The notes under the pieces: model-generated
Databases searched by the model: none
What the model was told of the DNA's origin: nothing
Seen by the model: only the letters and a program-made list of their open reading frames with translations
Translations under genes and position numbers: made by a program
Assembly (NCBI GenBank): GCA_030599585.1
Contig: JAUVNS010000009.1
Coordinates: 149,233-213,232, forward strand
From: Promethearchaeota archaeon
GTDB taxonomy: Archaea; Asgardarchaeota; Lokiarchaeia; Sigyniarchaeales; SOKP01
Length of the DNA stretch: 64,000 nucleotides
Direction: 5' to 3'
Part shown: piece by piece, positions 27,101 through 28,618 of the stretch
How the letters are laid out: every line of letters begins with the position of its first letter
Numbering within the stretch: position 1 is the stretch's first letter

Positions 27101-28618
27101 ATTGCATCAAATCAGCATTTCTATTGGGATCATGCAGATAAAATGGTGGGAGCTAAAACTAGTCCTTCATCAAATTCAAACGATGCAAGCATGCAAGCAC
27201 AATACTTATATGATATGAATGGGATAAGAGTTAAAAAAGTTGTGAAGTGTGGGGCAATAATAAAAACTTATGTTTCTATCGATGGTGTCTATAAAGAATA
27301 TTCTAAAAAAACTGCATCAGATGTGAAAGAGCATAAAATCTATAAACACATTATGGTTGGAACAAAAAGAACCGCAATAATAAAGGATATTTTTAAGGAA
27401 ACAAAACGAGACAATGAACCAAGCATATTATTCCACCATACTGATCTGTTGGAAAGATCTCAGATACTAACAGATATTGAAGGCCGGTTGTTCAATCAAG
27501 AAGAATTTTATCCTTTTGGAGACACAAGTTTTGGGAGCTATTCTAAGAAAAGATATAGATATAATGGAAAAGAATATGACGAAGAGACTGGATTCTATTA
27601 TTTTGGAGCGAGATATTATTCTCCTACTTTAAAAAGATGGATAAGTTGTGATCCGCTTGCACAAGAAGAAGGTTTAAACGCCTATACTTTTGTCAAAAAT
27701 AATCCCAACTCATTTAGAGATTCTTTTGGAATGGCGTCGGATCGTCGTGTTAAGCAACTTGAGGCAGCAATCGATACCGGAGATCCAAATATAGATTCTG
27801 AACTTCTTGACCCCGCCTCGCAGGTTAATGAAATCCAAACCATAGTAGGCCCTGCAAACCCAACTATTAGTAGGAGTATCGATGAAAGAATTAAAGAATT
27901 TGATAAAAAAGGTATAAGAGATATTACTAACATATATCACAAACCAATAATAAAAAAAATCCAAAATATGCTTGAAGAAGGGGGTAGTGGTATCAAGAGT
28001 TGGATGTTCAAGGGAAGTTATGTAGTATCTATTGCGTCATATATGACTAAAAAAGGTGACATTAATCACATCATTGCTGTTAATGGTCAAACATCAGAAA
28101 GCGGGGGGGGGAAGGCTAAAATGGAAGGGGCAGTAAAGCAATTAAATAAGATGTTTGCAAATTCCCCATCAGTTACCATTGCAAATAGTCCAACTGGTGA
28201 TCCTAGATATAAAGTCATGGAGGGCGTTGGAGGAAACTTACTGAGAAAGAATCATGCTGAAGTAAAAATTTTTGAGGCACTTCAAGGAAGAACTGATATT
28301 GGTTCAAAAATTTATCTTACCGCGGATAAGAAAATGTGTGTGACATGTAAAATGGTAAAAAAACAATTTGAAAACTTAGAAGGTCATACCGTCGAAGTCT
28401 ATCATGATAGTTTAAATGATGACGATGCTAACAAATTTCAAGCAGGATGTAAATTAGAAAATTTTAATAGAGATAAAACATCTTTGGAAGGTTTTATAGG
28501 AACATATGAGTATCATTTCAAACATGAAATTGTAGGTGATGAAGTCGTTCCAATTAAAACTATTTTAGAAAATCTTTACAATAATGGATTAGCTAATCGC
28601 AATTTTTATCCAAGATAA
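21173..28618 (+). CDS. Fused TcB-TcC (SpvB/FG-GAP/RHS) toxin with C-terminal deaminase-like domain
   Basis: ISIPKGGGSI.GIGE.F…G.GNGPYGLGW, RPRTEGLFARIE, R.DPFSSFRSGFEIRT.RRC, D..GDG..D repeats, EREFRGFG, RHS core RYRYNGKE.DEETG.YYFGARYY…W.S.DP…NNP…DSFG, then HAE…CVTC. Confidence 0.95.
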   Translation: MSNKSGANNSAISIPKGGGSINGIGESFKPDLFTGTGNFSIPIVISRGRNDFGPKLNLQYSTGSGNGPYGLGWQISIPNITRKTEKGIPEYTDEDIFIISGAEDLVPVLDKNSNLPFYIIKENYTIYLYRPRTEGLFARIEKWVRDDGDMHWRVISKDNLTNIYGRTPSARIFDSNNARHIYKWNLQETYDAKGNHILYEYEKENPNIKIRKIYEKNRNYNQIYIRRILYGNTPDDLEKSKRVGPARIGSDGTPNGTKLRYYLYEVLFDFGDLPALPSIPYNPLEFDKLIDEWPLREDPFSSFRSGFEIRTLRRCKRILMLQHFAEEELIEAPLVKSTNFEYSINKDTNLSMLRLVKVVGYMKSNSIGYVSSEMPPVTLNYSEFKPYRQKFQSVSVNGNDFPPMALSDPNYTLIDLFGNGLPDILCTTENAYYYWRNLGDGFFERRNVQQNMPSSVTLSSPNIAIGDIGGNGLADIIVRTPEISGYYEATPIGTWKPYKKFDHIPSFDLSDSNVHLIDLVGDGLSDAIVSQETNFLWYRCLGETGYDEPRLIPRNYDLNEFPNVYFNDPEGRIRFADMNGDGLSDIVMIHNGRIDYWANLGYGRFSRRLTMANFPHFDHTFNLKRLFLVDLDGSGCDDLVYVDFNEVHFWFNQSGNKWSEKQTIHGTPYTSDVTSVQFADIFGIGSTSLVWSYNYDEQPDSNYKVLDFCGGVKPYLLIKMSNNMGTTTRVKYAPSTKFYLEDIKNGKQWVSNLPFPVQVVEKTEKIDHINKLKLVTAYKYHHGYFCGSEREFRGFGQVDQYDTEEFDVFINSSLHKDTTLYENKQKCHYTPPVLTKTWFHLGIYFDESIYSSNNQFFDKTDMMVSYRNEFFNKDKLAFNLDDHQVEKGESPHDAYRTLRGSIIRTEIYGLDDTAKDEFPYLITENLYHVKELQARKSNNKGVYFAYVKEGFIYHYERNPSDPRINHQITLGIDEYGNITDNISIIYPRRPTNDIYEEQNNIKVTYSYSKFINSDLYSLDQSSHYYIGINCETKVFEVLGINWNWSSSTYLKSDYFSAILGPDNYKPFNYISPKDISTLEKKIIDWSRQYFRKDQNPMEIDKIGYLDNRLPLGEIESLGLLYENYVACFNDNMLNDLYGEKEINPWEDGGYHPHPNHPNAEENSSGYWWIPSGRKAYNPSKFYLNELFQDSFGEFTLTLYDEYGLMVKSIETPWSYKYIEDVDRKHLTKSEPNYRVLEPQKVVDPNGNISSILFDPLGMVIATAMAGRDENGKIIGDSLSEVEYLDESKALDQVNNPLTNPMDILKNATTRIILDINRFYREGLPNVSYIMSRERYSSESQGKSSRIHHKFVYFDGFGRQLQIKQYLESEVLDDSKTIHRWFGTGTSIYNNKGKEVRKYEPFFSEHHHYGIEQHGVSPIFFYDPMDRMICNLHPNHTYEKTLIGAWKEEHWDANDNTHPEFRFNPLKPEKLPDHTFSPIDDPHVGSYFRSLPENDYLPTWYDLRMDTEKASQKWTDLNVRRIQEKAAKRTARHSATPTIFHQDGLSRNFLVIANNGKDDLGNDSFLKTWTKWDIKGNDISIIDPRNIMIYNHKFDMCGNKLLIESLDSGSKLTLLNIGRKPIYQWDSNNHIVKISYDELQRPVKKEVQYRNKTALVQKTIYGEEDPNAKKFNLIGQVYKQYDGAGLLICHKYDFKNNLINKTRKVIKNQEIENKFYDKKAPYLIVDWDLYDDDILDPQDYSSSQEFDALNRMIRKKYPDGTTVDFNYNLKNLVESTTVDGKVFIQSINYNEKDQRLQILYGNDIQTRYEYYPDTFLLKRLWTRRNKGKGKFLQDLRYFYDPIGNTLLIDDKVKTGEKKHVLERLLEHHSEYMYDPLYRLIFAKGKECILNNLENKIPKCIDHTATQIYQRKYYYDQSGNMIKLNHKAIAQGKVVENWINDYIYGNETLPLLNNKLTKIITSKGAKILSYDFNGNLKEIASNQHFYWDHADKMVGAKTSPSSNSNDASMQAQYLYDMNGIRVKKVVKCGAIIKTYVSIDGVYKEYSKKTASDVKEHKIYKHIMVGTKRTAIIKDIFKETKRDNEPSILFHHTDLLERSQILTDIEGRLFNQEEFYPFGDTSFGSYSKKRYRYNGKEYDEETGFYYFGARYYSPTLKRWISCDPLAQEEGLNAYTFVKNNPNSFRDSFGMASDRRVKQLEAAIDTGDPNIDSELLDPASQVNEIQTIVGPANPTISRSIDERIKEFDKKGIRDITNIYHKPIIKKIQNMLEEGGSGIKSWMFKGSYVVSIASYMTKKGDINHIIAVNGQTSESGGGKAKMEGAVKQLNKMFANSPSVTIANSPTGDPRYKVMEGVGGNLLRKNHAEVKIFEALQGRTDIGSKIYLTADKKMCVTCKMVKKQFENLEGHTVEVYHDSLNDDDANKFQAGCKLENFNRDKTSLEGFIGTYEYHFKHEIVGDEVVPIKTILENLYNNGLANRNFYPR

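Follow-up and report, generated by a model that had tools for sequence, protein, structure and literature searches.

A Tc toxin locus of an Asgard archaeon encodes a predicted zinc-dependent deaminase payload next to a conserved leucine-rich-repeat partner

Tc toxins are known almost only from bacteria that attack animals, and polymorphic toxins have been described as rare in archaea. The presence of a Tc (ABC) toxin locus in archaeal DNA raises the question of what this machine may deliver, and of whether the producer carries an inhibitor of the delivered enzyme. A stretch of 64,000 nucleotides from Promethearchaeota archaeon (hereafter the window; positions 149,233 to 213,232 of contig JAUVNS010000009.1, assembly GCA_030599585.1) was analyzed with respect to the C-terminal tail of a TcB-TcC fusion protein (27731-28618, forward strand) and the leucine-rich-repeat (LRR) gene that faces it. 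The best overall explanation, which is considered likely, is an archaeal Tc toxin carrying a zinc-dependent deaminase payload of a new clade together with an LRR immunity partner. The initial annotation of the window had proposed a zinc-deaminase-like Tc payload, and this proposal is supported by invariant motifs, a helix-2 signature, the order of the structural elements, and fold searches dominated by deaminases.

The carrier was identified from its Pfam domains. The upstream open reading frame (ORF) at 13218-21146 (+) encodes 2642 residues with a TcB-binding domain (TcA_TcB_BD, E 2e-82), ABC_toxin_N and Neuraminidase-like matches, and is a TcA subunit, which forms the injection channel and the receptor-binding shell. 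The adjacent frame at 21173-28618 (+) is a single uninterrupted ORF of 2481 residues, of which 27731-28618 is the C-terminus. Within it, SpvB (E 1.4e-87), the FG-GAP propeller (FG-GAP_3), TcdB_toxin_midN (5e-35) and midC (4e-31) scored above threshold and RHS_repeat below threshold (E 0.005); the part up to M2187 (21173-27733) is the predicted TcB-TcC fusion core, or cocoon. Given the domains of both ORFs, the locus is read as TcA plus a TcB-TcC fusion, and by its domains it has the complete Tc architecture. One metagenomic protein, P0004, is another TcB-TcC fusion, whose core is 66.7% identical to that of the window and whose tail is 31% identical. In the P0004 locus (L002 6933-14372), the SpvB N-terminus is a separate ORF of 202 residues located 165 bp before the 2221-residue remainder; this may be a true split, or else the product of a frameshift or of a misassembly. 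Only 53 bp of contig remain past the gene, so that an LRR partner would lie outside the available sequence.

A tail of about 294 residues had been described behind an RHS autocleavage motif, and the reading frame bears this out, given that 27731-28618 encodes 295 residues and a stop codon. The motif also lies where it had been placed, in DSFGM; the cut, which had been drawn before the methionine, is instead expected after M2187 (27731-27733). The putative C-terminal aspartyl autoprotease motif of the RHS core, CDPL...NNPNSFRDSFGM (27650-27733, +), aligned with DPAG...NNPIIFHDPTGL of P0004, and in a position-by-position comparison the end of the core, CDPLAQEEGLNAYTFVKNNPNSFRDSFGM, matched CDPAGPADGLNTYIYNKNNPIIFHDPTGL of P0004 residue for residue. 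The two autoprotease aspartates are encoded at 27650-27652 and 27719-27721, with a spacing of 23 residues, and DSFGM is the counterpart of DPxGL, P0004 having the canonical end NNPxxxxDPTGL. The aspartyl protease site of TccC3 is the bond that joins L678 to M679, which places it two residues ahead of P680 (PMC6868009). From this site and the DPxGL counterpart we infer cleavage after M2187, which would release a 294-residue tail starting with the alanine encoded at 27734. The predicted released payload has a mass of 32.7 kDa, an isoelectric point (pI) of 7.84 and a net charge of +1.4. For translocation by the Photorhabdus toxin, a payload minimum of ∼20 kDa and a limit on charge or pI have been reported (PMC6868009), and the predicted payload exceeds this minimum.

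Two short motifs in the tail carry the deaminase reading. In the translation of 27731-28618, NHAE comprises residues 174-177 (28250-28261) and MCVTC comprises residues 202-206 (28334-28348), both exactly as first annotated. NHAE is part of the helix-2 signature R-K-N-H-A-E-V-K (RxxHxExK; 28244-28267, +), with H175 as a predicted zinc ligand and E177 as the predicted catalytic glutamate, and M-C-V-T-C (+) lies at the start of helix 3, with C203 and C206 as further predicted zinc ligands. In an alignment of 10 homologous sequences (A2; 24-35% identity), the H, E, C and C of both motifs were invariant, as was the T between the two cysteines, whereas the R at -3, the N at -1 and the K at +2 of the glutamate were conserved in at least 90%, giving the family consensus RxNH[AG]ExK for helix 2 and C[VI]TC[KRQE][MIV] for the second motif. 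The loose pattern H[AGCV]E-20..35-CxxC was found in 7 of the 3568 long open frames of the genome. Because the pattern is rare among these frames and its four key residues are invariant in divergent homologs, the motif pair is taken to be more than a chance occurrence. Upstream of the predicted toxin domain (27866-28615, +), which rests on the structural model and the structure searches, lies an N-terminal linker (27734-27865, +) that is not conserved in the non-Tc homologs (alignments A1 and A2) and had a predicted local distance difference test score (pLDDT) below 50 in the first model. The payload family also has conserved N-terminal helices of its own, as well as a conserved helical C-terminal extension (F..Y...F....L..LW.xY).

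The first AlphaFold run, with a two-row alignment, gave a pLDDT of 50 and was too poor for use. When the 10-sequence alignment was used, a model (AF2, m7ce3120d8c4a) with a pLDDT of 71.2 and a predicted template modeling score (pTM) of 0.73 was obtained. In P0001 numbering, the model runs through Hel-1 (62-82), Str-1 (99-105), Str-2 (111-117), an insert of about 57 residues (118-174), Hel-2 (176-184), Str-3 (193-198), Hel-3 (204-217) and Str-4 (220-225), followed by the helical extension. This is the element order of the cytidine deaminase (CDA) fold up to Str-4, Str-5 being unresolved in the model. The [H/C/D]xE motif of that fold, here H175-A-E177, is located at the start of the predicted helix 2, and the CxxC motif, here C203-V-T-C206, at the start of helix 3 directly after the strand 193-198.

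The model was compared with known structures in several ways. A Foldseek comparison, which had been suggested in the initial annotation, returned a PPR-DYW domain, then SsdA, and then many APOBEC3 structures of the PDB (E 4e-3 to 0.1). An exhaustive structural search that is independent of Foldseek (VIA; 48,161 chains) gave SsdA as the best match (Z 8.4; 132/156 residues, root-mean-square deviation 3.6 Å), then DddB (Z 7.2) and DddA (Z 6.7); CDA-fold deaminases made up 32 of the top 36 rows, and guanine, blasticidin-S, dCMP, tRNA, cytosine and cytidine deaminases, AID and APOBEC followed the toxins almost unbroken. A shape search of the ESM Atlas returned PF14424 clusters, RHS fragments, PT-HINT toxins and DYW proteins. 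At the sequence level, only sub-threshold Pfam matches were found, namely PF14424 (BURPS668_1122, E 0.021) and PF14441 (OTT_1508, E 0.042), both confined to the segment from HAE to CxxC; the same two families recurred for five homologs, at E values down to 9.5e-4. Among the protein-language-model neighbors, the ten top-ranking clusters with a family assignment were all toxin deaminases (PF14424, Deam_C, MafB19, SsdA_C and SCP1.201; top score 0.88), which is treated as a lead only. Each of these lines is moderate when taken singly. In combination with one another and with the invariant catalytic residues, these lines make a deaminase (CDA) fold the clear reading of the predicted payload.

The payload was then placed among the described toxin deaminases. 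The BURPS668_1122 clade has the helix-2 signature RxxDxExK, and its sister clade SCP1.201 has [HD]xEx[KQ] (PMC3239186). With PF14424, the window protein scored 15.4 bits and the best family member 19.8 bits, against a threshold of 29.6. The R, E and K of RxxDxExK are kept in the payload family, with H rather than D as the metal ligand, and the serine of the BURPS668_1122 motif CxxCxS is lacking at that place. The SCP1.201 pattern is present as H-A-E-V-K, its K conserved in at least 90%, whereas no match to PF14428 (SCP1.201) was obtained at E ≤ 0.1 and no conserved Asn at the end of Str-3, a feature of SCP1.201, was found in alignment A2. Because the family lies below all thresholds, has H for D, lacks both the Ser and the Asn and has extensions of its own, it is filed as a putative new clade in the BURPS668_1122/SCP1.201 higher-order group of toxin deaminases with a C-terminal hairpin, as a member of neither. 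The expected hairpin was not seen in the model, since the part after Str-4 is poorly defined.

BURPS668_1122 (PF14424; Iyer et al. 2011) is the best neighbor of the payload in Pfam, in the language-model comparison and in the Atlas structures. Both are C-terminal tips of polymorphic toxins, including tips on SpvB/RHS carriers, and the insert that separates Str-2 from Hel-2 matches the clade signature (PMC3239186). The payload differs in its H ligand, in the missing Ser after CxxC, in its additional N-terminal helical region and helical C-terminal extension, and in its partner, which is an LRR protein and not Imm2 or Imm3. DddA, the type VI secretion system toxin of Burkholderia cenocepacia (SCP1.201/BaDTF1; PDB 6u08 and 8e5d, Z 6.7 and 6.5), has the [HD]xEx[KQ] motif and the strand-2/helix-2 insert in common with the payload and is likewise a toxin tip, neutralized by an adjacent immunity protein; no sequence match of the payload to PF14428 or to the PDB chains was found, and the carrier and the immunity protein (DddI) differ. 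SsdA of Pseudomonas syringae (BaDTF2, DYW-like, type VI secretion system; PDB 9c63), the best VIA and second Foldseek match, has HxE and CxxC as well, although the identity is 13%, the payload is larger by about 100 residues and DYW-type features are lacking. The clade signatures of the payload favor BURPS668_1122/SCP1.201 over DYW.

In its delivery logic, an RHS cocoon with a deaminase as the C-terminal hypervariable region, the predicted toxin resembles the deaminase-tipped TcC/SpvB-RHS toxins (PMC7861908, PMC3239186), of which Photorhabdus laumondii TccC6, with a YwqJ-like tip (PMC7861908), and B3gp45 of a Wolbachia phage are examples. Those toxins are bacterial and fall into the YwqJ or AID/APOBEC-like clades, and no immunity gene has been reported for them. 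The present payload is archaeal, comes from a different clade and is part of a TcB-TcC fusion, and an LRR protein is its conserved partner. The novelty implied in the initial annotation for a deaminase as Tc payload was overstated, given that a 2011 study predicted such payloads for TcC/SpvB-RHS carriers (PMC3239186) and a 2021 study catalogued them (PMC7861908). What is new is the unmodeled deaminase clade, its presence on a Tc machine in Asgard archaea, and the LRR partner in every informative context. The strictly conserved convergent LRR partner, which is the strongest new feature, and the Asgard host had both been missed.

The payload family is very rare, with about 10 clusters among 1.84 billion representatives. 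A word-indexed search of 5.8 billion proteins returned P0004 as the one relative among long proteins, and none among proteins of 162-517 residues, either with a single sequence or with a 10-row profile; the latter result is read as a limit of the index, because an exhaustive search had found such proteins. In that exhaustive HMMER search of 1.84 billion cluster representatives, 10 proteins were obtained at E ≤ 0.001, of which nine are credible; the tenth, P0014 (2628 residues), reached E 4.5e-4 over six short stretches and is likely spurious. The relatives are 139 to 3344 residues long, and the deaminase domain is C-terminal in all of them. Among 400 genomes of the phylum, the domain was found in the window genome and the genome G178, and a remnant of it in the genome G159; the 41 genomes of the host genus gave no match. 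The carriers are unrelated, comprising the Tc cocoon, a giant protein of 3344 residues and proteins of 190-850 residues. From this variety, and from the contrast between 66.7% identity in the core and 31% in the payload relative to P0004, the toxin domain and the LRR gene would appear to move together as a cassette between carriers.

Several features of the non-Tc carriers were also recorded. The short carriers P0005, P0010, P0012 and P0015 have the N-terminal motif (M/K)VNS[RKE][SN]D in common. P0005 and the giant P0008 (residues ∼2960-3040) have a common pre-toxin segment, I.I.Y..G.TAG[DE]I ... L[LM][LI][MI]P.S.AG[GA], which may be a junction or a processing module of another delivery system. 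The gene for P0008 (3344 residues; L003 1-5926, on a contig of GCA_040960625.1) lies 75 bp downstream of a gene for a product of 9874 residues, and no Pfam match was found for either protein.

The LRR gene (28623-29642, -) is convergent with the toxin gene, ends 4 bp from its stop codon and encodes a protein of 339 residues with Pfam LRR_14, LRR_8 and LRR_4 matches, which is a candidate immunity protein or inhibitor. The protein is acidic (pI 5.1, against 8.8 for the toxin core) and lacks both a signal-like N-terminus and a carrier domain. An orthologous LRR gene of about 345 codons stood tail to tail with the deaminase gene in 9/9 informative contexts across five carrier types, always convergent and with gaps of 4-58 bp. 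It was found behind P0008, P0010 (383 residues; encoded on the P0008 contig), P0012 (848 residues), P0007 (192 residues) and the 406-residue deaminase protein of G178, as well as behind P0005 (389 residues), for which a gene table with LRR Pfam matches but no DNA was available; C-terminal LRR fragments were seen at the contig ends for P0009 and P0006. The orthologs are 34-40% identical over their full length and have a family-specific N-terminal domain of about 70 residues (MKEYxSIxLxDxExQ...FWYE..H..GLY). Of the 40 LRR matches in the window genome, one is a full-length copy of this family.

The partner is thus conserved next to the toxin tip whatever the carrier. No intact deaminase gene without an LRR neighbor was seen among the informative contexts; the sole deaminase fragment without one, P0013 (139 residues), lacks the N-terminal half of the domain. 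In G159 (L018/L027, G159:C77), an intact LRR gene stands beside a 5'-truncated deaminase remnant with an internal stop and nothing upstream of the CxxC region, and in G202 (L028, G202:C46) no deaminase was detected in the 669 bp available downstream of an orthologous LRR gene. These two states resemble orphan immunity genes, although their numbers are small; in them the LRR gene outlives the intact toxin, and the reverse was not seen. Because the partner is specific, follows the tip across unrelated carriers and outlives the toxin, the pair is read as a toxin-immunity cassette, and the LRR protein is somewhat more likely than not to be the cognate immunity protein, which would act as a stoichiometric inhibitor in the cytoplasm and so protect the producer. 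If so, the substrate of the deaminase would also be present in the archaeon itself. The horseshoe-shaped LRR ribonuclease inhibitor offers an analogy for such a role. A predicted class of LRR immunity proteins, Imm-LRR, has been described in bacteria next to type V secretion system toxins and in poly-immunity loci (PMC3482391; Zhang et al. 2012). Both are LRR proteins encoded next to a toxin tip; the present partner is tied to one deaminase family, convergent and archaeal, and has a distinct N-terminal domain. In three other loci, the LRR gene is followed by an ORF of 131-134 residues, which was rejected as a part of the module at the window locus, since tblastn revealed no counterpart in the window genome.

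The host was determined from marker genes. The small-subunit ribosomal RNA of the window genome is archaeal (1458 bits, the best model of its clan), an eukaryote-like actin (442 bits) is encoded, and 77 Ras-family GTPase matches were found, of which four, including the two best of the genome, are on this 213-kb contig. Ras-family GTPases and actin mark Asgard (Loki-type) archaea, and by these genes the host is an Asgard (Loki-type) archaeon. As the archaeal and Asgard markers include four Ras-family genes on the contig itself, we argue that it is not a bacterial contaminant. SpvB-type Tc genes were found in 2/400 genomes of the phylum and in 0/41 of the genus. The only other such gene in the phylum (L024, G041:C93) is an open frame of 2514 residues, 39.5% identical to the TcB part of the window; the deaminase profile had no match in the G041 genome, and the gene would thus carry a different payload. 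The G+C content is 0.34-0.36 in the Tc genes (14001-24000), 0.29 in the region of the payload and the LRR gene and 0.25-0.26 downstream (30001-36000), a compositional island that is consistent with acquisition. On other contigs, the genes neighboring homologous cassettes are 50-62% identical to genes of the window genome, and one source assembly of the relatives carries an archaeal MJECL33-family gene; as far as is visible, the deaminase-LRR module therefore appears to circulate among related archaea.

DNA cytosine-to-uracil deamination is the most likely single activity, with a chance that we would place slightly under even, because the nearest characterized relatives, SsdA, DddB and DddA, are DNA cytosine deaminases. 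DddA acts on double-stranded DNA (PMC7901873), SsdA on single-stranded DNA and DddB/BaDTF3 on double-stranded DNA. RNA is an unlikely substrate, and free nucleotides are a still less probable one.

Several observations count against a deaminase payload with an LRR immunity partner. No Pfam or NCBIfam deaminase model scored above threshold (15.4 against 29.6 bits for the window protein with PF14424), the NCBIfam comparison of the payload yielding noise only, and no solved structure was found by PDB sequence and profile searches. The matches that these did return (influenza PA, a designed protein and thioredoxins) had E values of ∼0.1 or higher and were not significant. The structural model is middling and its part after Str-4 is poorly defined, and Z 8.4 is at the upper edge of the range reached by unrelated models, according to the search tool's own note. 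In the autoprotease motif, both aspartates are present but DSFGM is a degenerate form of DPxGL (S for P, M for L). With a pI of 7.84 and a net charge of +1.4, the payload is only just at the translocation limit of the Photorhabdus toxin, and the P0004 payload is acidic (pI 6.5); given the acidic P0004 tail, the clade may not follow the Photorhabdus charge rule. In polymorphic toxin systems, the immunity gene is normally co-oriented with the toxin gene and downstream of it, and the LRR gene is always convergent. Moreover, in a genome-wide survey, immunity genes were reported to be absent from every Tc locus examined (PMC7861908).

Alternative explanations of the payload were weighed against this evidence. 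That the tail is no deaminase at all, with an incidental HAE and a CxxC derived from a thioredoxin-like redox domain or another zinc-ribbon-like domain, is highly improbable. The family profile does match thioredoxins weakly over a strand-CxxC-helix segment (E about 1), and four of the phylum's genomes gave weak profile matches as well (per-genome E of 7e-5 to 8e-4). The thioredoxin matches, however, span only about 47 residues of one supersecondary motif common to both folds, whereas the H and E lie 26-30 residues upstream, show no variation and stand at a helix N-terminus as in deaminases; among the 50 best structural matches there was no thioredoxin-fold chain, and most were CDA-fold deaminases. 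The weak per-genome matches, to proteins of about 230 residues in another family of the phylum (f13; L019-L022), were rejected as relatives, the sole one inspected (L019 1048-1737, -) having two CxxC motifs and looking like an oxidoreductase of the thioredoxin/glutaredoxin type. An active deaminase fold that edits RNA (tRNA, rRNA or mRNA) or depletes free nucleotides, instead of mutating DNA, is a more serious proposition, though a rather unlikely one. Substrate is not fixed by fold alone, the top Foldseek match was the RNA-editing PPR-DYW domain, and ADAT2/3, TadA, the archaeal tRNA CDA and the dCMP, guanine and blasticidin deaminases all reached Z 5-6.5 in VIA. On the other hand, the exhaustive structural search ranked three toxins that deaminate DNA cytosine above all others, and the helix-2 signature is that of the BURPS668_1122/SCP1.201 group, whose characterized member DddA acts on double-stranded DNA (PMC3239186, PMC7901873).

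Other readings concern the partner and the contig. The LRR protein could be a co-effector, a chaperone, an assembly factor or a regulator that travels with the toxin gene. Its convergent orientation, in place of the usual co-oriented downstream position, the abundance of LRR proteins in the window genome and a best NCBIfam resemblance to the secreted effectors XopAE, XopAC and XopL, which lies far below the cut-offs, would all fit. We nevertheless regard such roles as doubtful, as the partner belongs to one specific family of orthologs, marked by an N-terminal domain of its own and found in one copy in the genome, has no secretion-like N-terminus or carrier domain, accompanies the toxin on five carrier types and persists with truncated or undetected toxin but not the reverse; LRR immunity proteins are, in addition, a recognized predicted class (Imm-LRR; PMC3482391). 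Mis-binning of a bacterial contig, or decay of the Tc locus to a relic, either of which would leave the payload without a function in the archaeon, is very improbable. A contamination estimate of 8.9% for the bin, the rarity of SpvB-type genes in the phylum and genus and the higher G+C content of the Tc genes relative to the downstream region (0.25-0.29) could be taken in that sense; they are outweighed by the four Ras-family genes on the contig, two of them the best of the genome's 77, by three uninterrupted Tc reading frames, by two further members of the same archaeal family (G178 and G159) in which the payload family and the LRR partner also occur, and by the likeness of the genes around the relatives to those of the window genome.

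Other genes of the window were also noted. At 60776-62214 (-), a tyrosine recombinase of 307 residues (Phage_integrase) overlaps an ORF of 172 residues. Its two members share 62% and 49% identity with those of the pair directly upstream of the P0010 cassette (L004 3364-4808), and similar pairs of an integrase and a protein of 172-182 residues flank the P0005 cassette twice; the pair may be a recombinase module that moves the cassette. The surroundings resemble a variable or defense island (32875-36317, 62788-63636 and 8313-9257), with an AAA_23/SMC_N-type ATPase of 633 residues after two ORFs of unknown type, an Mrr_cat restriction-endonuclease-like gene and a PNK3P/HAD-AAA_33 protein. Most other ORFs had no Pfam match, and no tRNA genes were found in the window.

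A mechanism can be proposed on the basis of the Tc paradigm. The RHS aspartyl autoprotease would cut the TcB-TcC protein after M2187, the unfolded 294-residue tail would be stored inside the cocoon, and the payload would be injected through the TcA channel into a target cell. By analogy with the family, it would then refold, with H175, C203 and C206 holding zinc and E177 acting as proton shuttle, and would deaminate most likely DNA cytosine. The genomic context suggests that the LRR protein would sequester toxin that folds in the producer or that is injected by kin. In a bolder form, which is offered tentatively as a possibility, the payload would represent a DNA-deaminase clade restricted to an Asgard lineage, with a dedicated LRR 'horseshoe' inhibitor, forming a mobile cassette that is loaded into the Tc machine.

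DddA, SsdA and DddB are toxin deaminases that have been turned into tools for base editing and footprinting, and with every new clade of toxin deaminases came a new substrate or sequence-context preference. The clade of the present payload lies below every existing family model, and all of its occurrences so far are in archaeal DNA of the Asgard type. Should the LRR protein be its inhibitor, it would provide a natural off-switch for the enzyme, an instance of LRR-based toxin neutralization in the archaeal lineage closest to eukaryotes, and a handle on the targets of archaeal Tc toxins. If the proposal as a whole is true, it would add the first case of a Tc toxin paired with a cognate immunity protein, along with a new pair of deaminase and inhibitor that might serve in base editing, and it would hint that archaeal Tc toxins act on cells that share the nucleic-acid substrate of the producer, that is, on prokaryotes or kin as well as on eukaryotes.

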